Shown one piece after another: positions 40,730 to 50,253 of a stretch of DNA of 64,000 bases. Position 1 is the stretch's first letter. Every line of letters starts with the position of its first letter. The notes under the pieces are model-generated. The model made no database searches. It saw only the letters and a program-made list of their open reading frames with translations, and had not been told where the DNA came from. Origin of the DNA: Acidobacteriota bacterium (GTDB lineage: Bacteria > Acidobacteriota > UBA890 > WLXD01); assembly GCA_963666055.2 (NCBI GenBank), contig CAXWPH010000011.1, forward strand, positions 128,001 through 192,000, given 5' to 3'. The translations under genes were made by a program, and so were the position numbers.

Positions 40730-40951
40730 CCCGGGCAAATCCTGAGGTTCATGAGATCGCACTCGAACAACTTCTTTCGATATCCCTGTTGTTTGCAAGC
40801 GGAGGGCGCGCCATGAGAATTAGGTTCCGCTAAACTACGGTTCAGTCGTGCCTAATTTCGTGTCACGGTGGCCGCTCGGGAGAGATCCTCGAGCGCGACG
40901 ACGACTTCTTCGTCGGCGTCGGAAACTGCATCCGCTGGTAGCGAGGAAGTG

Positions 40952-42877
40952 ATGGACTCCTGGGCCCCCGCCGCAGCTTCGGCGACGAGAAGTCGCCGCC
41001 TGCCCTTGCTGGCAACAGTCGTTCTCGGAGCACTCTTTCTGCTCCCGCTGACCGGACGATCCCACATCATCCGCGAGGAACCCTGGCACCCGGTACCAGC
41101 GGCGTATCTGCGCAGCATGTTCTACCTGAAGCTACAGCCGGTGAACTGGACGCTAGTCGCTGCGGAGTTCGAGGGCGTGCGTGAGAGCGGTTGGCAGCTC
41201 GACTCGGTCTACGACGGCATCGCGCTGGCCACAGAGCTCGAGGGCACCGACCACACGGCAACGATCCGCGCCGCCATCGCGGCCACCGATGCAGAGTCGT
41301 TTTCGGCTTCGGCCACGCGAGCGGTGTCGCAACTCGTGCGGTTACATCTGCGGCGCGCGCTGGCCAATCTCGACGCGCCAGGGGCAGCCCTCGAGGAGGT
41401 GCATCAGGCCAGCCGGATGTTCCGTGCATTCGACCGATTCGTGCGTGCCACCGACTCGCAGGGCGCTCGAGAACTGGGCCGTGCGTGGCTCGAGCTGACC
41501 ACGACGGTGGGCACAGCCGGAATCGGGAATCGCGGCGTGAAGCCGGTCGACAGGGAGCGTTTCGCCAGCGCCGCCGAGACCGTGGAGGCTTACCTCACCG
41601 CCAACTACGAGCGCGACGGCGGGCCGAGCATGACCCACTTCAACCCGGTTCCGGCGATCGGTCGCAACTCGACAGCCGGGGTGGCGCCCTGGTTGCCGCC
41701 GGCCACCGACCTCAACGACCAGGATCCTCTGCCCCGCCTGGTGCTGAACTTCGAGGAGCGCGGCGTCGACGAGAAAGATCTGTTCCTGGTGACCTACGGG
41801 GACATGCTCTTCGATTCGCCGCAGATCTTCGGCGAGCCGGCGCTCAGCCTCGGTCTCTCGTGCTCGCGTTGCCATAACCGTAGCGACATCAACCAACGGT
41901 TCTTCATCCCGGGAATCAGCACGCGTCCCGGCAACGTCGACGTCGACGGACACTACTTCAACCCGCGCTTCAACGATCGCCGCGCCGACGCGCTCGACAT
42001 CCCGAGCTTGCGCGGCCTCCGGTTCACGGCGCCCTATGGCCGCGACGGCCGTTTCGCAAGCCTGCGTAACTTCACCCGGAACGTCGTGGTCAACGAGTTC
42101 GCCGGCGAGGAGCCCTCGCCGTTGATGCTCGATGCTCTGGTCGCCTACATGTTCGAGTTCGATTGGCTGCCGGCGCCCTACCTGCAGCCTGACGGCCGGC
42201 TCAACGACGCCGCTTCCGACTCCGCCCGGCGCGGCGAGGTACTGTTCAATCGCCCGTTCGACGGCATGGGCGGACGCGCTTGCAGTACCTGTCATGTGCC
42301 GAGCAACAACTTCCTCGACGGCCAGCGACACGACATCGGTAGCGGCGAACGGTCGAGCCCGGGCGCTCGGGACACGTTCTTCGACACGCCGACGTTGATC
42401 GGCGTGTTGCACACTGCGCCGTACTTTCACGACGGGTCGGTGGTAACTCTCGCCGAAGTTGTCGATTGGCTCGATGATCAGTTCGACCTCGGCCTCGACG
42501 ACAACCAGCACTCCGACTTGACGATCTACCTCGAGACGGTGGGCGAAGGCACAGACCCGTACGAGGTGTTCGACGAGGACAACACGCTGTTCCAGCTGTT
42601 CTGGGGTGAGCTGTCGACGTTTGCCTCGACCCTGTCGACGCTCATTCCTGCGCGCGACGCCGAGCACGCCGACCTCATGCTGCGCACAGTCGCCGCCGAC
42701 TTGAGACTCGACGCCTCGGCGCTCGAGAATCTGGCACAGGCACCCAAGGTCTTCGAGCTCGCCGACCAGCTCGACGATATCCGTGCGTCAATCGACGCCG
42801 ACGATTGGCGCCGGGCGGCGCAGCTGTGGATCGAATACCAGGCGCTCGAAGCCGCTTACGGACCCGATTTCCGCTGA
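40952..42877 (+). CDS. Exported di-heme cytochrome c peroxidase/MauG-like protein with extra helical N- and C-terminal domains
   Basis: Signal peptide; CSRCH and CSTCH; PSLRGLRFTAPYGRDG, TPTLIGVLHTAPYFHDG. Confidence 0.82.
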   Translation: MDSWAPAAASATRSRRLPLLATVVLGALFLLPLTGRSHIIREEPWHPVPAAYLRSMFYLKLQPVNWTLVAAEFEGVRESGWQLDSVYDGIALATELEGTDHTATIRAAIAATDAESFSASATRAVSQLVRLHLRRALANLDAPGAALEEVHQASRMFRAFDRFVRATDSQGARELGRAWLELTTTVGTAGIGNRGVKPVDRERFASAAETVEAYLTANYERDGGPSMTHFNPVPAIGRNSTAGVAPWLPPATDLNDQDPLPRLVLNFEERGVDEKDLFLVTYGDMLFDSPQIFGEPALSLGLSCSRCHNRSDINQRFFIPGISTRPGNVDVDGHYFNPRFNDRRADALDIPSLRGLRFTAPYGRDGRFASLRNFTRNVVVNEFAGEEPSPLMLDALVAYMFEFDWLPAPYLQPDGRLNDAASDSARRGEVLFNRPFDGMGGRACSTCHVPSNNFLDGQRHDIGSGERSSPGARDTFFDTPTLIGVLHTAPYFHDGSVVTLAEVVDWLDDQFDLGLDDNQHSDLTIYLETVGEGTDPYEVFDEDNTLFQLFWGELSTFASTLSTLIPARDAEHADLMLRTVAADLRLDASALENLAQAPKVFELADQLDDIRASIDADDWRRAAQLWIEYQALEAAYGPDFR

Positions 42878-42905
42878 CCTCGGCCGACACGGCGAGGAGG
42901 ACGAT

Positions 42906-43793
42906 ATGAACCGACGATTCCGGAAAGCCACGGCGATCCTAGCGACCTCACTGGCGTTGTGCGCGGTGCAACCGGCCGGCCAGGCCGCGGCGATACCTCA
43001 GGACAAGCTGACGTTGGCGTTCATTCCACAGGAAAACCCCGAGAAGCTGCTCGACGATATCTCGGTCATTCGCGACTATCTGTCCGAGGAAATGGGAATG
43101 GCGGTCGACGGTTTTGTAACGCTCGACCACGCTGCCGCGGTCGAGGCGCTGCGCAACGGTACCGCCGATATCTCGTTCATGGGTGCCTTGCCCTACGTCC
43201 TGGCGCACCACCACGTCGACGCTCAAGTAGTGCTCGCCGAAATCTATCGCGGCAGCCCGATGTATCGGGCGCGCCTGTTCGTGCGGCGCGACAGCGGCAT
43301 CACTAAACTCGCCGACCTGCGTGGCAAGAGCATTGCCTTCGCCGATCCGATCTCGGAGTCCGGCTATCTGTACCCGCTCGATCTGTTTGCAGACGCTGGC
43401 TTCTTGACGCCTGGCGATGACCCGCAAACATTCTTCAGCTCGGTCTACTTCGCGGGCGGCTACCAGCAGGCCATCCAGGCAGTAGCGAACGGTTACGTAG
43501 ACGCTGCCGGCGCCAGCCAATACGCCGAGCTGCTGCTGACGCCCAAGCAGTTGCTGGAGGTAACTTCGATCGCCGAATCGGATCTGATCCCCTCGCACGC
43601 CGTGATCGCGCGGGGCGATCTCGACCCGATCGTCGTAGCGGCGTTCAAGCGAGCCATGCTGAAGCTCAACGACGACGATTACCGGCACCTGCTGCAGTAC
43701 GTGTACGGCCCCGACGGCTACGTTGAGGTCGACCATGCCGCCTTCGCGGGCGTGGAGGCCCTGGCGCGAGAGTATGGCTATCTGCAGAACTAG
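42906..43793 (+). CDS. Phosphate/phosphite/phosphonate ABC transporter substrate-binding protein (PhnD-like)
   Basis: RBS GAGGAGG; AAVEALRNG, LADLRGKSIAFADPISESGYLYP, AVANGYVDAA, IPSH. Confidence 0.85.
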   Translation: MNRRFRKATAILATSLALCAVQPAGQAAAIPQDKLTLAFIPQENPEKLLDDISVIRDYLSEEMGMAVDGFVTLDHAAAVEALRNGTADISFMGALPYVLAHHHVDAQVVLAEIYRGSPMYRARLFVRRDSGITKLADLRGKSIAFADPISESGYLYPLDLFADAGFLTPGDDPQTFFSSVYFAGGYQQAIQAVANGYVDAAGASQYAELLLTPKQLLEVTSIAESDLIPSHAVIARGDLDPIVVAAFKRAMLKLNDDDYRHLLQYVYGPDGYVEVDHAAFAGVEALAREYGYLQN

Positions 43794-43872
43794 CGTCCTG
43801 TGGTGGCAATCTCGGTGTTGCGATTCGTCGACGATGGGCGAGGCATCGAGCCGTTCCTGAAGGGAGCAATCC

Positions 43873-44664
43873 GTGTCTGAGCCGGTACTCCGCCTGCGCG
43901 ACCTACGCGTTCGCTACGGCTCCAGGCCGCCGGTCCTCGACGTCGGCGCGCTGGAGGTCGCCGCCGGGGAGATCGTTTGTGTCATCGGGTCCAGCGGCGC
44001 CGGCAAGACGACGCTTCTGCGACTGGCCAACGGCTACGTGCGCGCCGAGAGCGGTGAACTCGAGGTCCTCGGTACACCGACTCGCTTCGGGCCCGACAGC
44101 GGCACCGATCGGCGCGACCGGATGCTGCGGCAGCGCGTAGGCTTCGTATTCCAGAGTTTCAACGTTATCGAACGCGCCAGCGTGTTCGACAACGTCCTCT
44201 GGGGTTCGCTCGGCCGCCAACATGGCCTCGGCGCGCTGCTCGGCCGCTTTCCCGAAAGCGACCGACGCCTGGCCATGGAGGCGATTGCCGAGGTCGATCT
44301 GTTGGCGCAGACCACACAGCGTGTGGATACCTTGAGCGGCGGCCAGCAGCAGCGGGTCGGTGTGGCGCGCGTCATCATGCAGCAGCCGGAACTGGTGCTC
44401 GCCGACGAGCCGGTGTCGAGCCTCGATCCGGTGCTCGCCGAGGAGATCGTCGAGTTGCTCGTCGGGGTCGCCCGGCGACACGGCAAGACGTTGATCATGA
44501 GCCTGCACCTGCCAGCGCTGGCGCAGCGTTTCGCCGATCGCGTGGTCGGGCTGCGAGCCGGCGGGGTGGTCTGGGACGGTGCCGCGGTGGCTCTGGACGA
44601 CACCGCCATCGCCTCGATCTACGGATCTGAATCGCCACCGCCGGCGCCGGAGGTCGGACAATGA
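43873..44664 (+). CDS. PhnC-like ABC ATPase
   Basis: GSSGAGKT, LSGGQQQRV, LADEPVSSLDP, SLH. Confidence 0.9.
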   Translation: MSEPVLRLRDLRVRYGSRPPVLDVGALEVAAGEIVCVIGSSGAGKTTLLRLANGYVRAESGELEVLGTPTRFGPDSGTDRRDRMLRQRVGFVFQSFNVIERASVFDNVLWGSLGRQHGLGALLGRFPESDRRLAMEAIAEVDLLAQTTQRVDTLSGGQQQRVGVARVIMQQPELVLADEPVSSLDPVLAEEIVELLVGVARRHGKTLIMSLHLPALAQRFADRVVGLRAGGVVWDGAAVALDDTAIASIYGSESPPPAPEVGQ

Positions 44665-45473
44665 GGTCTGATGCCCACACGGCCAGCCCCGCTGCCCCTG
44701 CGCCACCCGAACAGAGTCTGGGCACGACGCTGCGTCGCTCCACCGGGATGATTGCTCTGGCTGTGGTGGTCGCTTGGGCGTGGCACGGTACCGGCTTCGA
44801 GCTCAGCCGCCTGGGCGGCAGCCTCGCGCCACTGATCGAGTTCTTAGACCGCATGACCCCACCGGATCTGTCGGCACTCGAAGTGGCGATGAGATCGACG
44901 GCCGAGACGCTCCAGATCGCCGTGCTCGGGACGTTCTTGGCCGTCGTCCTGTCGATACCGCCGGCGTTGTTGGCGGCGGCGAACCTAACGGCGGCGTGGA
45001 TCCACCAGCCGGTGCGCTGGCTTCTGGCGCTGCTGCGCGGTATTCCACTGCTGTTGCTGGCACTGATGTTCGTTGCTGCGCTTGGCTTGGGACCCGTACC
45101 CGGCGTGCTCGCCGTGGCCGTGCATTCGGTCGGCATGCTGGCCAAGTTCTACGCCGACGCCTTCGAGAGCGCCCGGCCGGGCCCCATCGAAGCGCTCGAC
45201 TCCGCCGGCGCCAACTGGCTCCAGCGCGTACGCTACGGTGTGCTGACGCAGGTAGCGCCCGATCTGGCTCGCGACACGCTGTTCCGCTTCGAGCTGAACC
45301 TACGCGAGTCGCTGGTCTTAGGCCTCGTCGGTGCGGGCGGTATCGGCTTCTACATTCAGCTCTACATCCGTTCCTTCCGCTACACGAGGGTGGCCACCCT
45401 GACGCTGGTGATCCTGGTGATCGTCGTGCTGGTAGAACAGGGCAGCGTCGCGATTCGTCGCCGGCTCAGCTGA
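44661..45473 (+). CDS. PhnE-like ABC permease
   Basis: ETLQIA, GMLAKFYADAFE, RFELNLRES.VLGLVGAGGIG. Confidence 0.9.
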   Translation: MRSDAHTASPAAPAPPEQSLGTTLRRSTGMIALAVVVAWAWHGTGFELSRLGGSLAPLIEFLDRMTPPDLSALEVAMRSTAETLQIAVLGTFLAVVLSIPPALLAAANLTAAWIHQPVRWLLALLRGIPLLLLALMFVAALGLGPVPGVLAVAVHSVGMLAKFYADAFESARPGPIEALDSAGANWLQRVRYGVLTQVAPDLARDTLFRFELNLRESLVLGLVGAGGIGFYIQLYIRSFRYTRVATLTLVILVIVVLVEQGSVAIRRRLS

Positions 45474-45489
45474 GACGCGGTTGTCTCCC

Positions 45490-45801
45490 CTACCCCGCCC
45501 GGCGCTCGGCGATCAGGCTGGCGGCGAAGCCGTCGTAGTCGGCAGCGCGACGCTGCAGCATGTCGCGCAGATGCTCCAACGCCTTCTCCTTGCTCGATAG
45601 CCCGTACATGTAGATCTTGAGCGGGCCGATCAAGCCGAGGTAGTAGTGGTTGGTGGCGTCGTACTCGGCGGCGCAGGCGCTCGGATCGATGGCGACTGCG
45701 AGCAGATCGTCGAAGGTGTCGGCGAACTGCGCCAGCAGCGGTTCCCGATGTAGGTCTGTCGGAATCTCAGGGAAGCGAGTGACGAGGTCTTGGACGGTCA
45801 T
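45490..45801 (-). CDS. Small hypothetical protein
   Basis: Coding-like ORF MTVQDLVTRFPEIP...PSAC...NHYYLGLIGP; product unknown. Confidence 0.6.
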   Translation of the reverse strand: MTVQDLVTRFPEIPTDLHREPLLAQFADTFDDLLAVAIDPSACAAEYDATNHYYLGLIGPLKIYMYGLSSKEKALEHLRDMLQRRAADYDGFAASLIAERRAG

Positions 45802-45914
45802 CGGGCTTGGGTCCGGGAGTTGATCTGCGGCGGCGATCGACAACGCAGTAGTCCAACACTCTATACGCTGCGCCGCCATCAGCCCTCCCGTCGCTGCGAA
45901 GAATCACCAGTGCG

Positions 45915-46265
45915 GCTACGGCTTTTTCTCCAGAACCCGGAGAGTATAGGGTGAGGATTGCCGCGCCGGACGATCCTCGATCCAGTCGAGCACTTCGGCG
46001 CGAAAGCGCACCGGTTCGTCGACGGAATCGAACCGGTCGATATCCTTCACCTGCGAAGACCTGGTTAGAGCCGACCCAACGGATCCGATCCGAGGACCTC
46101 CTCGACGCCAGCGACATCTCCCAGCGCGGAAATCGCCTGCTGTGTCGTCTGCCGGTTGCAGGGCAGGAACAGCATCACTTCAACCGCATGAACTTCGGCG
46201 GCCGCCGCACGGGCGACGCCCAGCGCCACGAAAGCCATTAGCACGACCTTCGTCCAGGGTTTCAT
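45915..46265 (-). pseudogene. Exported HMA-like (ferredoxin-fold) protein, frameshifted or internally deleted near 46070
   Basis: RBS AAGGAGG; signal peptide; EVMLFLPCNRQT...ALGDVAGVEEV, then TAA. A shifted frame gives a plausible C-terminus ...PVRFRAEVLDWI...YTLRVLEKKP*. Confidence 0.5.
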
Positions 46266-46420
46266 GATGGCCTCCTTGTCGCTGCAGGTTGGATGTCTGA
46301 GAGCCTCGCTTTCTTCGCCGGGCGCGGAGGAATCCGTCACCGACGCCACAGCCCGATGAAACGAGCCTGGCGTGCTGAGCGGCTGAGCAAGTCGAAACGC
46401 CCGAGCGGCGACGACTTGCG

Positions 46421-47434
46421 TCAGGAACCTCTGGCGAAACGCTGCACCCGCGAGGCGGCGAAATCGGCCACGTAGAGGCGGCCTTCGGAATCGACGTCGA
46501 TGTCGGCGGGCGAGTAGATGCGCCGCGTGCTCCGGTACCAACGCTCGGCGGCACGGGACACGAGAAAGACCTGTCCGGACGGGTCTAGGCCCTGGACTCG
46601 AAAGTTGGCGCTATCGGCGACGAACAGATTGCCCTCCGCGTCGGTGGCGAGGCCTACGGGGACTTCCCACTCGCCGGCCTCCGCGCCCTTGCGTCCCCAA
46701 CCCTCGCGGAGGGTGCGGTCGGACTCGAACACGAGGATCTCGTAGGCGTGGGTATTACTGACATAGAGCGTGTCGTCCGGCCCGACGGCAGCGTCGCTGG
46801 GGAAGACGAACAGGTCGTGGGGATCGCCCGGTGTGGCCATCATCGACATCTTCGTCTCCTCCATCCCGCGGACCGGCGGGCGGTTCTGAGCGTAGCGGCG
46901 CGCGGAGTCACCGCCGTCGATAAAGCGTATGAAGTTGCCTTCGGAGTCGAGCTCCTGGACACGCTGGCCCATGAACTCCACGACGATGACATTGCCCGTC
47001 GGCGTGACCGCCACGCCGCTGGGAGCCTGGAACTGACCGGCACCCGTTCCGCGCCCTCCCCATACCTCGAGCAGCTTGCCATCGCGGTCGAGCAGCAGCA
47101 GCCGATCGCCGGTGTAGTCGGTCACCAAGATCGTCCCGTCGAGCCGTTCCGCCAAGCCGACCGGCCGCGTTCCCTCGGGCAACGCCCATTGGTCGATCGG
47201 CGTGCCGTCGGCGTCGTAAACGACGATCCGCGAGGCACCGTCGGCGACCATTACCCGCCCAGACATGCTGACAGCAATGCCCATGGGATGATCGAGGGAG
47301 CTGCCCTCGGGGCCAGCTTCTGTCCACTCGGCCTCGAGCTCGAGCGTGCCGACGAGCACCTGACCGAGCGTGCCGACCGCGCCGGTCAGAACCCCGGCGA
47401 CGATCACCAAGCGCACCCAGCGCCAGCGCCTCAT
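46421..47434 (-). CDS. Exported NHL-repeat six-bladed beta-propeller protein
   Basis: Signal peptide; HPMGIAV, GQFQAPSGVAV, FVFPSDAAV, PVGLATD, VADSANFRVQ; ATGA overlap with the upstream gene. Confidence 0.88.
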   Translation of the reverse strand: MRRWRWVRLVIVAGVLTGAVGTLGQVLVGTLELEAEWTEAGPEGSSLDHPMGIAVSMSGRVMVADGASRIVVYDADGTPIDQWALPEGTRPVGLAERLDGTILVTDYTGDRLLLLDRDGKLLEVWGGRGTGAGQFQAPSGVAVTPTGNVIVVEFMGQRVQELDSEGNFIRFIDGGDSARRYAQNRPPVRGMEETKMSMMATPGDPHDLFVFPSDAAVGPDDTLYVSNTHAYEILVFESDRTLREGWGRKGAEAGEWEVPVGLATDAEGNLFVADSANFRVQGLDPSGQVFLVSRAAERWYRSTRRIYSPADIDVDSEGRLYVADFAASRVQRFARGS

Positions 47435-47988
47435 TCGTCGCTGACGCTCCCTTGTACCTGCACGGTGACAGGGGCCTTATCATCGGCTCGAGTGGCTCGA
47501 CCGTAGAGCGTCATCGACCCGGGCGGTGCAACCCTGAACGCGGCGAGAGCCTCCCTGCCTCGCTCGTCGCCGGCGACGAGCAGAAACCGCTGCCCACTGC
47601 TCTCGCTCACTAACCAGGCTGCCGTCTCGTTCGTGGCAATCGCCGGCAGGTCATTGGTGTCGGCGATTCCCCGCAGCCAAACCGTCACCCCAGTCGGCGT
47701 GAAATCGACCTTGGACACACCCGCTTCGAGCGCGGCGGGATCGAACATCGCGTCGGGCGTGAACGTCACGGTGATCAACCCTCGCTCCAGATCTTCCTTC
47801 GTGTCGGCAACGCCTTCCAGGCGTTGTAGGGATCGATTGATCCCGTAGGCTCAGAGCCCTCACGTCATCCCGTCGACACCGACCTCCGCCTTGATGACCT
47901 GGGCGGTAACGGGCGCGGCGACGAGCATCGCGAAGAACAGCCCGACGCCGACGGTGATCAAACGCCGACTTTCGGTTTGGTGGCTCAT
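47431..47988 (-). CDS. Exported HMA-domain putative selenoprotein, GMT-U-G-L-U (two in-frame TGA)
   Basis: RBS AGGAGG and ATG at 47988; signal peptide; ...EVGVDGMT TGA(47862-47860) GL TGA(47853-47851) AYGINRSLQRLEGVADTKEDLERGLITVTF. The frame stays open to 47431 (185 aa). The TGAs sit exactly at both Cys positions of GMTCxxC. Confidence 0.82.
47808..47844 (-). other. Candidate bacterial SECIS hairpins
   Basis: mRNA GGGAUC-AAUC-GAUCCC (loop ~22 nt after the first UGA) and CAACGCCU-GGA-AGGCGUUG (8-bp stem, G-containing loop ~33 nt after the second UGA). Confidence 0.55.
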
Positions 47989-48020
47989 GTCGACCCTCCT
48001 CGAGTCGAGGCGTCCATCTT

Positions 48021-48962
48021 TCACGGGACGATGATGTAGCGTAGGCCGAATAGCACGTTGATACTCGGCGCCAGCTGCGTGCCGTTGAGGTAACGAACCG
48101 CGGGGAGCTGCACACCGGCCTCGACGACGAAGTTGGGCCGCAGCAGGTACTGGATTCCGGGGGAAAGATACAGGAGGTTTCCGCCTGAACTGTCGACTTC
48201 CTGGTCGCCGGCGCGCGAGTGTCCCTGCCAACGGCCGTTGAGCTCCAGTAGCAAGAAGACGTCGCGGGAGCGCAATGACGAGATCCGTGTCTTGACCATA
48301 GCATCGTAGCGGAACCGGTCGCCAAGCTCGAAATCGTTGGCCTCCGTGCTTCGCGAGACGCCGACACTGGCAGTGAAGAACCAGCGGGCGGAAGGGGTCA
48401 CATAGCTTGCGATGAAGTCGGCGGTCGGGTCCCAGGATCCAGTCCCACGTTGGAGCGGCGGCGACAACAACTGCCCGTTCGATGAGTCGCGCGCGTCGCC
48501 GCGACCGGTCGGGGTCTTGACACCGCCCTGAAACGACAGCTGGACTCCTCCTCTGCCGCGATCCCGCTTCAGGAAGCGCCACTTGACCAGCAGGGTCGCA
48601 TCGCCGAAGCCCAGGCCGGCTCCAAGACGCTCTGTGCCCGCCGGGCCGTCGATTCGCATCTCCTTGTCGAGTACCGGGAATACGCCGATCAAGCTGACCT
48701 TGCGGTGCAACCCGTACACCACGGCCATCGATACCACGCTTGCTTTGAACCTACGCCCCAGAGGGTTGGGGACCTGCGCGCTGCCGCTCAGCGTGTCGTT
48801 GGCCTGCAGGAAGCTCGCCACGGTGCGGATGCCGAATCCGGAGATGAACTCCGCTCGCGCCCCCGGCGCGAAGATCTGGGCGCTCGACTCCCCGGGCCAA
48901 CCAAGAGTCAACGCCAGCACCGCGTACAGTGCCGGTCGCGATATGGTCGCTTTGCTGTTCAT
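48021..48962 (-). CDS. Outer-membrane beta-barrel 'transporter' (MetA-pathway-like family)
   Basis: Signal peptide; GFGDATLLVKWRF, GVKTPTG, QRGTGSWD, ELNG, SGGNLLYLSPGIQY, terminal FGLRY. Confidence 0.82.
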   Translation of the reverse strand: MNSKATISRPALYAVLALTLGWPGESSAQIFAPGARAEFISGFGIRTVASFLQANDTLSGSAQVPNPLGRRFKASVVSMAVVYGLHRKVSLIGVFPVLDKEMRIDGPAGTERLGAGLGFGDATLLVKWRFLKRDRGRGGVQLSFQGGVKTPTGRGDARDSSNGQLLSPPLQRGTGSWDPTADFIASYVTPSARWFFTASVGVSRSTEANDFELGDRFRYDAMVKTRISSLRSRDVFLLLELNGRWQGHSRAGDQEVDSSGGNLLYLSPGIQYLLRPNFVVEAGVQLPAVRYLNGTQLAPSINVLFGLRYIIVP

Positions 48963-49110
48963 GCTGCTTCGTCGCTTTCCGCCGCGGCGCGGTCGCCGAA
49001 CGGCCCCTCTCGTCCGATCGCATCCAGAATCGGGCACTCGCCCACGGGCCCCTCTCCCTCGCACTGTCGCGCAATCGCATCAGCGCACACCGCATTTGAC
49101 TCGAGCACCC
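48959..49110 (-). pseudogene. 3' remnant of a MerR-family heavy-metal-responsive regulator
   Basis: Manual translation ...ARQCEGEGPVGECPILDAIG...EAA* gives a C-x8-CPIL metal loop. Its TGA overlaps the barrel ATG (ATGA). The 5' HTH part is absent. Confidence 0.7.
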
Positions 49111-49368
49111 AGATCGCCGGCTAGCTCGACAGTACCGTATTGGCAGATACGTCATGCGGACCGCGAAATTGACGCCGTAGACAAGCCGCGTCCAGGGTCG
49201 CCCGGCTACAGTTGGGCTCGACGAGTTCCACCGCGCCGGAAAACTGCTGCGGACCGTAGACGTATTGCATCATTAGATCATTAACGTAGCCACCGCTGCT
49301 CCGGGGTTGGGCAAGCGTCTCGTCGGTCCAGATCCTTACCCCGGCGGAACCGCGCAGCGGGCGCCTGG

Positions 49369-50253
49369 GTGCGGCAGGCAAGCGCGTTCCACAACCGCGT
49401 CACTGCCGACGGCTCATCGGGCTTCACTGCCGAGGCCGGGCGCTATCATCTGTACGTCTCCTATGCCTGTCCCTGGGCTCACCGGACAATCATCTTCCGC
49501 CGCCTGAAGGGGCTCGAGGAGTGCATCGGCATGACCGTCGTCGACCCGATCCGCGACCAGCGCGGCTGGGCCTTCACCGGCGCGGCAGGCAGTGAGCTGG
49601 ACCGGCTGAACGGCTTCGATTTCCTCAGCGAGGCCTACCTGGCCAGCAACCCCGGCTTCGACGGCAGGGTGACGGTACCCGTGCTCTGGGACCACCAGGA
49701 GCGAATGATCGTCAACAACGAGTCGTCCGAGATCATTCGTCTGCTCAACTCGGAGTTCGACGCCTGGGGCAACGCCGAAGCCGATTACTACCCGGCTGAG
49801 CTACGCGCCAAGATTGACGCGATCACCGAGCTCATCTATCCGAACATCAACGACGGCGTCTACCGTTGCGGCTTCGCCACCTCCCAGGCAGCCTACGACG
49901 ACGCCATCGCCGCGCTCTTCGCGACCCTCGATCAGCTCGAGGAGCGGCTGGCGGGCCACCGCTACCTGGTGGACGACACGATCACCGAGGCAGACTGGCG
50001 CCTGTTCACGACCCTGGTGCGCTTCGATCCGGTCTACGTCACCCACTTCAAGTGCAACGTCCGGCGACTCATCGACTACCCCAACCTCTGGGGCTACACG
50101 CGTGACCTGTATCAGCAGCCCGGGATCGCGGACACGGTGAACCTGGACCACATCCGGCGCCACTACTACGTCACCCACCGCAGCATCAATCCGCACGGGA
50201 TTATTCCGGCGGGCCCGGAGATCAACTACTCGACCCCGCACGGGCGTGCCTGA
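49369..50253 (+). CDS. Glutathionyl-hydroquinone reductase (YqjG/ECM4-like GST)
   Basis: GRYHLYVSYACPWAHR, TVPVLWD, VNNESSEI, GVYRCGFA, RFDPVY.HFKCN. Start uncertain. Confidence 0.92.
   Translation: MRQASAFHNRVTADGSSGFTAEAGRYHLYVSYACPWAHRTIIFRRLKGLEECIGMTVVDPIRDQRGWAFTGAAGSELDRLNGFDFLSEAYLASNPGFDGRVTVPVLWDHQERMIVNNESSEIIRLLNSEFDAWGNAEADYYPAELRAKIDAITELIYPNINDGVYRCGFATSQAAYDDAIAALFATLDQLEERLAGHRYLVDDTITEADWRLFTTLVRFDPVYVTHFKCNVRRLIDYPNLWGYTRDLYQQPGIADTVNLDHIRRHYYVTHRSINPHGIIPAGPEINYSTPHGRA

Follow-up and report, generated by a model that had tools for sequence, protein, structure and literature searches.

Two in-frame TGA codons in an HMA-domain gene

The window analysed here, a 64,000-nucleotide (nt) stretch of contig CAXWPH010000011.1 from an Acidobacteriota bacterium, carries on its reverse strand a small gene for a heavy-metal-associated (HMA) domain protein in which selenocysteine (Sec) is predicted at both metal-ligand positions, giving a UxxU motif in place of CxxC. 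The reading frame runs from the ATG at 47988 to the TGA at 47431 and is open save for two TGA codons, codons 43 and 46, which lie in GTC GAC GGG ATG ACG TGA GGG CTC TGA GCC and interrupt the protein as GMT-stop-GL-stop-AYG; readthrough of both yields a product of 185 amino acids (aa). The features of the gene are as follows:

47995..48000, minus strand: ribosome-binding site AGGAGG, 6 nt upstream of the ATG (sequence)
47431..47988, minus strand: gene for the UxxU HMA protein with a C-terminal β domain, 185 aa (sequence, Pfam, homologs, substitution rates)
47902..47988, minus strand: likely Sec-type (secretory) signal peptide, residues 1-29, with a hydrophobic core and ending in VTA (read from the sequence)
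47689..47901, minus strand: HMA domain, about residues 30-100, βαββαβ (PF00403, AlphaFold2, Foldseek/VIA)
47860..47862, minus strand: UGA1, putative Sec43, aligned to the first Cys of CxxC homologs
47851..47853, minus strand: UGA2, putative Sec46, aligned to the second Cys of CxxC homologs
47434..47688, minus strand: C-terminal domain of five strands and a helix with OB-fold-like topology (DSSP of the AlphaFold2 model)

An earlier reading of the same DNA (the original prediction) had described a strong ribosome-binding site and ATG at 47988 and a frame broken by just two TGAs, and all of these elements were found in the sequence. The terminal TGA (47433-47431), which overlaps the ATG of the downstream gene, reads TAG in 5 of 10 homologs and is therefore taken as the true stop. 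The read-through product matched the Pfam HMA model (PF00403) at 38 bits against a cut-off of 24.8, with the paired ligands in the β1-α1 loop, and an AlphaFold2 model of the mature protein (67-row alignment, U entered as C) reached a mean predicted local distance difference test score (pLDDT) of 96.4. Residues 1-75 of this model matched MerP, CopZ, Ccc2 and ATP7B domains by Foldseek and by VIA (Z up to 12.5, root-mean-square deviation 1.6 over 72 residues). The C-terminal part, 85 aa long, gave weak Pfam matches to DUF5818 and tRNA_anti-codon, each in 2 of the 67 members; its single-domain model was of low confidence and returned no structural match, and all its matches in the ESM Atlas were under 0.9. 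The HMA domain followed by an additional β domain, as originally proposed, is thus supported by the profile match and the predicted structure.

The genome from which the window comes (G000; other G-numbers denote comparison genomes and L-numbers loci) was found to encode the Sec machinery, with selA, selB and selD above cut-offs and selC present as a tRNA-Sec of 68 bits, and tRNA-Sec accounts for all of its tRNAs with a UCA anticodon. Likewise, selB was detected in 10 of the 11 UxxU-bearing genomes tested, the missing one being an 84% complete genome. Both TGAs are conserved in G002 (83% identity), G008 (64%) and G004 (45%), in all 15 metagenomic loci (identity 41-70%, with several near-duplicates among them), and also in G166 and a Calditrichaceae genome, while the wider family holds CxxC, UxxC, UxxU and CxxU forms. 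A TGH/TGH pattern scan of the genome contigs (motif G-M-x-x-G-L-x-A-Y-G) returned 4 matches: 3 are family genes with TGA at both positions, 1 is an off-frame match due to chance, and none has Cys or mixed codons at the motif. No alternative letter at either TGA was listed in 64 assembled contigs (contigs, not raw reads) from 4 public runs aligned over 47790-47885. Within 47808-47862, differences among these contigs were limited to the loop of the first hairpin described below, two A→G wobble sites, the linker, and the third bases of Tyr48 and Leu45; a further contig comparison added the last loop base of the second hairpin and the first base of Leu45 and again showed no TGC or TGT. Leu45, between the TGAs, varies freely. 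Among the public runs, no RNA dataset was listed as carrying the sequence.

Downstream of the selenocysteine insertion sequence (SECIS), the ratio of nonsynonymous to synonymous substitution (dN/dS) was 0.25 against G002, 0.21 against L027 and 0.10 against L028, and 0.36-0.52 in distant, near-saturated pairs, compared with 0.56-0.97 for the fast-evolving signal peptide. None of the four refuting conditions named with the original prediction was borne out. Collectively, the TGAs kept in homologs, the Sec machinery, the SECIS and purifying selection support the claim that Sec occupies both ligand Cys positions; judged from sequence, it is very highly probable that both UGAs are read as Sec, and near certain that this is a real double-selenocysteine HMA gene. 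The alternative, that the gene is a pseudogene with nonsense codons, that the TGAs are sequencing errors, or that TGA is read here as Trp or Cys, could draw on the merR remnant and the broken next small gene in G000 and on the WGLW reading of three database homologs. It is made very improbable by the conservation of both TGAs across two phyla, the low dN/dS, the SECIS, the restriction of UCA anticodons to tRNA-Sec and the use of TGA as a stop elsewhere in G000. The WGLW proteins, for their part, fall beside the TGA-bearing Calditrichaceae gene in the tree and probably result from gene calling under code 4, as judged from the proteins, not the DNA.

Several observations concern the tRNAs and selenoproteins of G000 at large. 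Two tRNA-Sec genes were called (C6:7932-8029 and C13:66090-66187), but we rejected a biological duplication, as both lie within 3 kb of sequence that is duplicated at 99.8% identity at a contig end, which probably reflects redundancy in the assembly. An ARAGORN call of tRNA-Pyl (CUA) at C5:65608-65685 (minus strand) looks like a degenerate tRNA-Arg copy. The selenoproteome is large, with about 20 further TGA-plus-SECIS genes (loci L139-L158); 12 of 18 scanned Sec candidates matched families such as FdhA, SelW-like, PrdB-like, ArsM and Prx/ResA-like, and the set further includes deiodinase-like, AhpD-like and several Prx/ResA-like genes, as well as others that we take to be DUF3179-, DsrE-, OsmC- and rhodanese-like.

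Tandem hairpins downstream of the UxxU codons

Immediately downstream of the two UGAs, the coding sequence folds into two adjacent hairpins:

47829..47844, minus strand: hairpin H1, 6 base pairs (bp) with a 4-nt loop lacking G, starting 15 nt after UGA1 and 6 nt after UGA2 (folding and alignments)
47808..47826, minus strand: hairpin H2, of bacterial SECIS type, 7 bp with the loop UGGAA, the loop lying 40 nt after UGA1 and 31 nt after UGA2

Bacterial SECIS elements are usually treated as one per UGA, within the coding sequence, and the consensus in PMC13188914 places an apical loop with G[G/U] 16-37 nt from the UGA, from which a subset of elements is said there to depart. H2 agrees with this consensus in stem, loop (U-G-G-A-N), energy and its spacing to UGA2, and differs from it in its 40-nt distance from UGA1 and in the conserved hairpin that precedes it; the H1 loop, at 21 nt from UGA1, has no G. 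Decoding of UxxU is therefore unexplained by the consensus model. As for conservation, codons 47-60 showed a synonymous divergence (dS) of 0 against G002, L027 and L028, compared with a downstream dS of 0.33-2.0, and the rare codons CGA, CTA and GTT (5-13% genome usage) were invariant in 13 of 13 sequences. The region folded as two hairpins with z scores of -3.4 to -3.9, and in the close-clade alignment all 182 cells were paired, with only wobble changes.

We then compared 56 loci (26 UxxU, 12 UxxC, 16 CxxC and 2 CxxU), 3 of an initial 59 having been removed, L096 and L100 as duplicates and L135 because the wrong motif had been picked; the UxxU loci are mutually related, so that the counts overstate independence, although six motif lineages are represented. 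H2 was present at +40 in exact register in 26/26 UxxU loci and in none of the 12 UxxC, 16 CxxC or 2 CxxU loci, whereas a SECIS near +17 was found in 10/12 UxxC and 0/26 UxxU loci, and all 16 CxxC loci lacked both. The closing pair of H2 changes from U-N to A-U in 7 of the 26 UxxU loci. H1 was the minimum free energy (MFE) hairpin in all 26, beginning 5-8 nt after UGA2, with arms unrelated in sequence between lineages. Its mean energy was -8.9 kcal/mol compared to -4.4 kcal/mol for synonymous recodings, while the same region in CxxC loci gave -2.4 versus -3.2 kcal/mol. When 5' bases covered by the ribosome were masked, H1 was folded with the ribosome at UGA1 and lost at UGA2, and H2 persisted at both. 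Two further loci, L127 and L131, are CGN-TGA forms beside a barrel gene and had no SECIS at either tested position.

Among 20 single-UGA candidates in G000, the SECIS loop lay 15-24 nt after the UGA, with one at 29 nt, in a Prx-like gene at C5:40106 (minus strand, L141), where a possible weak 4-bp hairpin in the spacer was not confirmed by MFE folding. The range depends on the exclusion by judgement, for implausible protein context, of 8 of 28 other rows, whose loops lay at 8, 14, 18, 21, 24, 32, 39 and 41 nt and three of which would have widened it.

These data suggest a mechanism in which SelB would bind H2, placed far enough downstream to stay folded during passage over both UGAs. With the ribosome at UGA1, a folded H1 would remove about 14 nt of the 40-nt spacer and bring H2 into working range; at UGA2, H1 would melt and leave 31 nt, within the 16-37 nt rule. 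The SECIS may have moved downstream in UxxU genes because a standard +17 element would be unwound by the reading of UGA2. We regard this spacer-shortening role of H1 as an evenly balanced proposition. A competing explanation, to which we assign slightly less than even weight, is that H1 itself serves UGA1 as a SECIS of non-canonical kind, or acts as a pause element comparable to the eukaryotic selenocysteine codon redefinition elements (SREs) and stimulates readthrough of UGA2; H1 does begin 6 nt after UGA2, and SREs adjoin UGAs (PMC5727441). It sits poorly with the loops: in addition to the window's G-less loop, the first two positions lack G in 9 of 10 UGLU loops, G[G/U] fits in only 5/26, most such Gs are the first bases of Glu or Val codons, and the loop bases vary freely in contigs. 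Spacer shortening itself has to contend with three observations: H1 was more stable than synonymous recoding at P < 0.05 in just 16 of the 26 related UxxU sequences (0/16 for CxxC), two-sided covariation in H1 or H2 was absent within the close clade, and the Calditrichaceae region was no more stable than its shuffles (z -0.4 to -0.5). The family offers matched zero-, one- and two-Sec forms, between which the RNA architecture changes cleanly; the question of how UxxU is decoded thereby becomes testable with simple reporters, and the answer could be of use for engineering multi-Sec proteins.

A two-domain family and its predicted outer-membrane barrel partner

By its sequence, the protein is a member of a distinct two-domain family that has CxxC, UxxC and UxxU forms, namely the CPFC/CAPC 'heavy-metal-associated domain-containing proteins' of databases (about 160-190 aa; ESM Atlas clusters 0.93-0.95), with which it shares the signal-HMA-β-domain layout, the GFTP/DFTP hinge and the barrel neighbour. 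Database members of that family are Cys forms; its Sec forms are present there only in fragmentary or mistranslated shape, either reduced to the C-terminal part or with W where the TGAs stand: the best 150 matches of a profile search of 1.84 billion representatives included C-terminal Sec-form fragments, three proteins translated as WGLW and many Cys forms of full length, most of them CPFC. A scan of the whole phylum (401 genomes) gave 59 matches, spread over 50 genomes; two TGAs were present in 20 of these matches, a single TGA in 14 and no TGA in 25 (8 of the 59, all without internal stops, were not fetched for locus analysis). Among the 86 genomes of the Calditrichaceae host's phylum, the seed genome was the sole match at E ≤ 1e-12, and a search of plasmids with a Cys-form query gave no match. 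When the motif was masked, a quick tree placed the 8 Acidobacteriota UGLU rows in one clade (Shimodaira-Hasegawa-like approximate likelihood ratio test, SH-aLRT, 99) beside the Calditrichaceae and WGLW rows (89), and the other UxxU lineages (UPLU, USLU, UALU, UATU and UNFU) were scattered on weak forks. The tree is compatible with a single or several UxxU origins, and its starred branches force at least 2 changes.

The original prediction had left open whether such a family was catalogued. UxxU HMA selenoproteins are already catalogued as a protein type, being listed as NF041115 (PMC13188914), and a 'putative mercuric reductase, UxxU' entry appears in PMC9312934; the window protein probably works in a similar way but falls outside that model. 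Both have an HMA-type domain with Sec at both ligand positions, but with C substituted for U the window protein scored 35.5 bits against a cut-off of 95, close to CopZ on the same model (36.4), 6 scanned family members scored 28-45 bits, and the 74 model positions leave the 85-aa C-terminal domain uncovered; no NF041115 match above cut-off was found in 151 genomes of the window's phylum. With MerP (TIGR02052; PDB 1osd, 1afi) and CopZ/Atx1 the protein shares the βαββαβ fold and the GMxCxxC-type loop, and with MerP also a signal peptide and, in some relatives, mer-type neighbours, but it has Sec for Cys and an extra β domain. It reached 30.5 bits on the single-domain MerP model, whose cut-off is 92.55; its family has an outer-membrane barrel, not MerT, as constant partner, and at L046 a separate CxxC MerP-like gene adjoins the UGLU module (order: merA C-terminus, MerP-like CxxC protein, barrel, UGLU gene, NHL β-propeller). 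A literature search that left outside it supplements, BSepDB entries and Haft and Tolstoy 2025, which may list the family, found nothing on the two-domain family, on tandem hairpins for UxxU or on the pairing of a barrel with an HMA protein. What is added to the known UxxU HMA type is the proposed RNA rule and the predicted barrel partnership.

The barrel gene lies directly upstream of the UxxU gene:

48021..48962, minus strand: Phenol_MetA_deg (COG4313-type) outer-membrane barrel gene, likely start ATG 48962 (PF13557, 45.1 bits against a cut-off of 22)

Across 61 family loci, with flanks of mostly 1.5-5 kb, a PF13557 barrel gene was found in 50, comprising 28/31 UxxU, 9/12 UxxC, 11/16 CxxC and 2/2 CxxU loci. 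We predicted a complex for the Cys-form barrel/HMA pair of G020, each chain given as an alignment, and obtained a score of 0.81 compared to 0.32 for the best of 3 controls; in a benchmark, 116 of 157 solved complexes attained this mark, and so did 2 of 215 mismatched pairs. Contact agreement between runs was at least 94% and partner pLDDT at least 83. The interface includes both Cys, the DFT turn and, on the barrel, residues 1-17 (the N-terminal segment), short turns and the penultimate residue 287; mapped to the window's HMA protein it covers residues 37-53 (both Sec), 64-70 and 92-99. By analogy with Pput2725, in which the lumen is filled on its periplasmic side by the 14 N-terminal residues (PMC4493636), the interface would be the barrel's periplasmic face, with the metal loop against it. 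The only PDB sequence relatives of the barrel alignment were FapF chains (E 7e-7), so that recall of a like complex by the predictor is not evident. The barrel resembles the COG4313 channels (Pput2725, SphA and TcpY) and FapF in its PF13557 match and in having an N-terminal segment before the first strand; it differs in its association, as the part of PMC4493636 available names no metal role or periplasmic HMA partner. From the predicted complex, the mature protein probably docks loop-first at the periplasmic mouth, beneath the N-terminal plug. An exported metallochaperone had originally been proposed; a free shuttle of CopZ/MerP type is less favoured here than a barrel-docked protein in view of the linkage and the complex score.

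Mercury context and candidate functions

Three further elements lie around the UxxU and barrel genes:

48995..49075, minus strand: C-terminal merR remnant of 27 codons, both distal Cys kept (tblastn, 67% to the L027 MerR; sole MerR match at E ≤ 1e-3 in G000)
46421..47434, minus strand: NHL β-propeller gene with a Met-rich insert, downstream of and ATGA-coupled to the UxxU gene (Pfam NHL)
45917..46265, minus strand: broken single-Cys gene of similar two-part layout, which has lost about 150 nt near 46093; G002 and G006 have intact copies

An NHL gene was found near 14 of 31 UxxU loci. The single-Cys (LPCN) small exported gene has intact copies at L077:11495-11992 and L081:874-1455, lies in G006 beside a merOP-like promoter and had no NCBIfam match. 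Three-Cys MerR regulators, merOP-like promoters and merT occur at L030 and L078, and a three-Cys MerR at L027; at L030 a divergent three-Cys MerR gene is accompanied by genes for a UxxC HMA protein and MerT, and presumably also a CopZ-like Fe-S protein. Promoters with TTGACT, a 19-nt spacer and a dyad precede the barrel gene in G004 and L030 (judged by the Tn501 operator consensus). The mercury MerR model was the best-scoring one for all 7 neighbouring regulators scanned, and MerA above cut-off was present in G165. The module is probably MerR-controlled in several relatives, and merR has been lost in G000: only a MerR C-terminal remnant is left in G000 and G002, no merOP-like match was found in G000 and no sigma-70 promoter at 45300-49450. 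Because of the merR remnant, the deletion in the next small gene and the frameshifted barrel gene of G002, the module copy in G000 may have escaped regulation or be in decay, even though selection acts on the UxxU gene.

We propose that the protein is an exported two-domain selenoprotein, docked to the barrel and carrying Sec at both HMA ligands, that likely captures soft metals, most probably Hg(II); this overall account we hold to be slightly more probable than not. The selenolate pair would bind a thiophilic metal entering through the barrel, which we again consider modestly favoured, and would then retain it or, in genomes that have MerT/MerP, pass it to these. The MerR, merA and merT context points to Hg(II) as the most probable metal. 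An orphan barrel family and its partner would thereby gain a testable role in metal capture. More broadly, the module may represent a widespread, unannotated two-component outer-membrane device for metal capture, in which a plugged 12-stranded barrel is capped periplasmically by an HMA domain, the ligands are tuned from CxxC through UxxC to UxxU, and two UGAs three codons apart share a single SECIS in the coding region thanks to a hairpin that folds up the spacer. We hold this generalization to be less probable than not; if true, bacteria would intercept mercury at the outer membrane via selenolate pairs without MerA, and the H1 and H2 cassette would be a portable rule for multi-Sec recoding.

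Several observations weigh against this account. A periplasmic UxxU may oxidise to a stable diselenide. The pair that was folded is the Cys form of G020, with 31% barrel identity, not the window's own; the window barrel lacks five interface residues (204-208), and conservation of interface columns was 0.44 compared to 0.48 elsewhere. Pput2725 has been argued to pass hydrophobic molecules, not ions. Regarding mercury, 6 of the 7 neighbouring MerRs scored under the MerR cut-off, with CueR nearly tied for L027, the G004 MerR lacks the helix-5 Cys, MerR was near just 5 of 31 UxxU loci (2 of them remnants; flanks are short), and MerA above cut-off was absent from G000 (96% complete), G002, G004 and G166.

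The protein might instead be a free periplasmic metallochaperone or metal sink of MerP/CopZ type, undocked, with Cu(I) or Ag(I) possibly the main metal, since the fold resembles CopZ, MerP and ATP7B domains equally, the NHL partner carries an insert rich in Met, G004 has a multicopper oxidase gene about 3 kb downstream and G002 a CusB-like gene at a distance of about 8 kb, and the barrel interface is not especially conserved; the persistence of the barrel link over CxxC, UxxC and UxxU forms, the complex prediction and the three Cys in most neighbouring MerRs make this unlikely. Less likely still is a redox role, in which a UxxU selenol/diselenide switch would gate the barrel or reduce an incoming substrate, with a TlpA/ResA-like protein of the periplasm regenerating it. 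Sec commonly stands in for redox Cys, and CxxC redoxin genes flank 3 of 13 scanned UxxU loci, all of other UxxU lineages, with a thioredoxin-reductase-like gene at 1, but the fold is HMA, not thioredoxin, and the UGLU clade neighbours MerR, MerT, MerP and MerA, not redoxins. That the barrel is a FapF- or autotransporter-like export pore, with the HMA protein as its plug, chaperone or cargo, would accord with its FapF relatives and with the resemblance of COG4313 barrels to autotransporter barrels noted in PMC4493636; with no gene for an amyloid or a passenger found in the neighbourhoods and regulators of metal-sensing MerR types, we see only a slim chance of it. Barrel-docked capture of a soft metal remains our preferred reading.

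Some observations on the surroundings may be added. L030, L053, L059 and L078, all from related genomes, carry separate UxxC MerP/CopZ-like selenoproteins (GMT-U-GG-C, GMT-U-GA-C) beside merT and merR. In the window, an apparent N-terminal extension of the barrel open reading frame overlaps the merR remnant (48995-49075). Upstream, a glutathione transferase gene (49369-50253) was not seen at that position in G002, and on the other side, genes on the plus strand at 40868-45473, for a cytochrome c peroxidase-like protein and then a phosphonate-type ABC transporter, are convergent with the operon and syntenic in G002.

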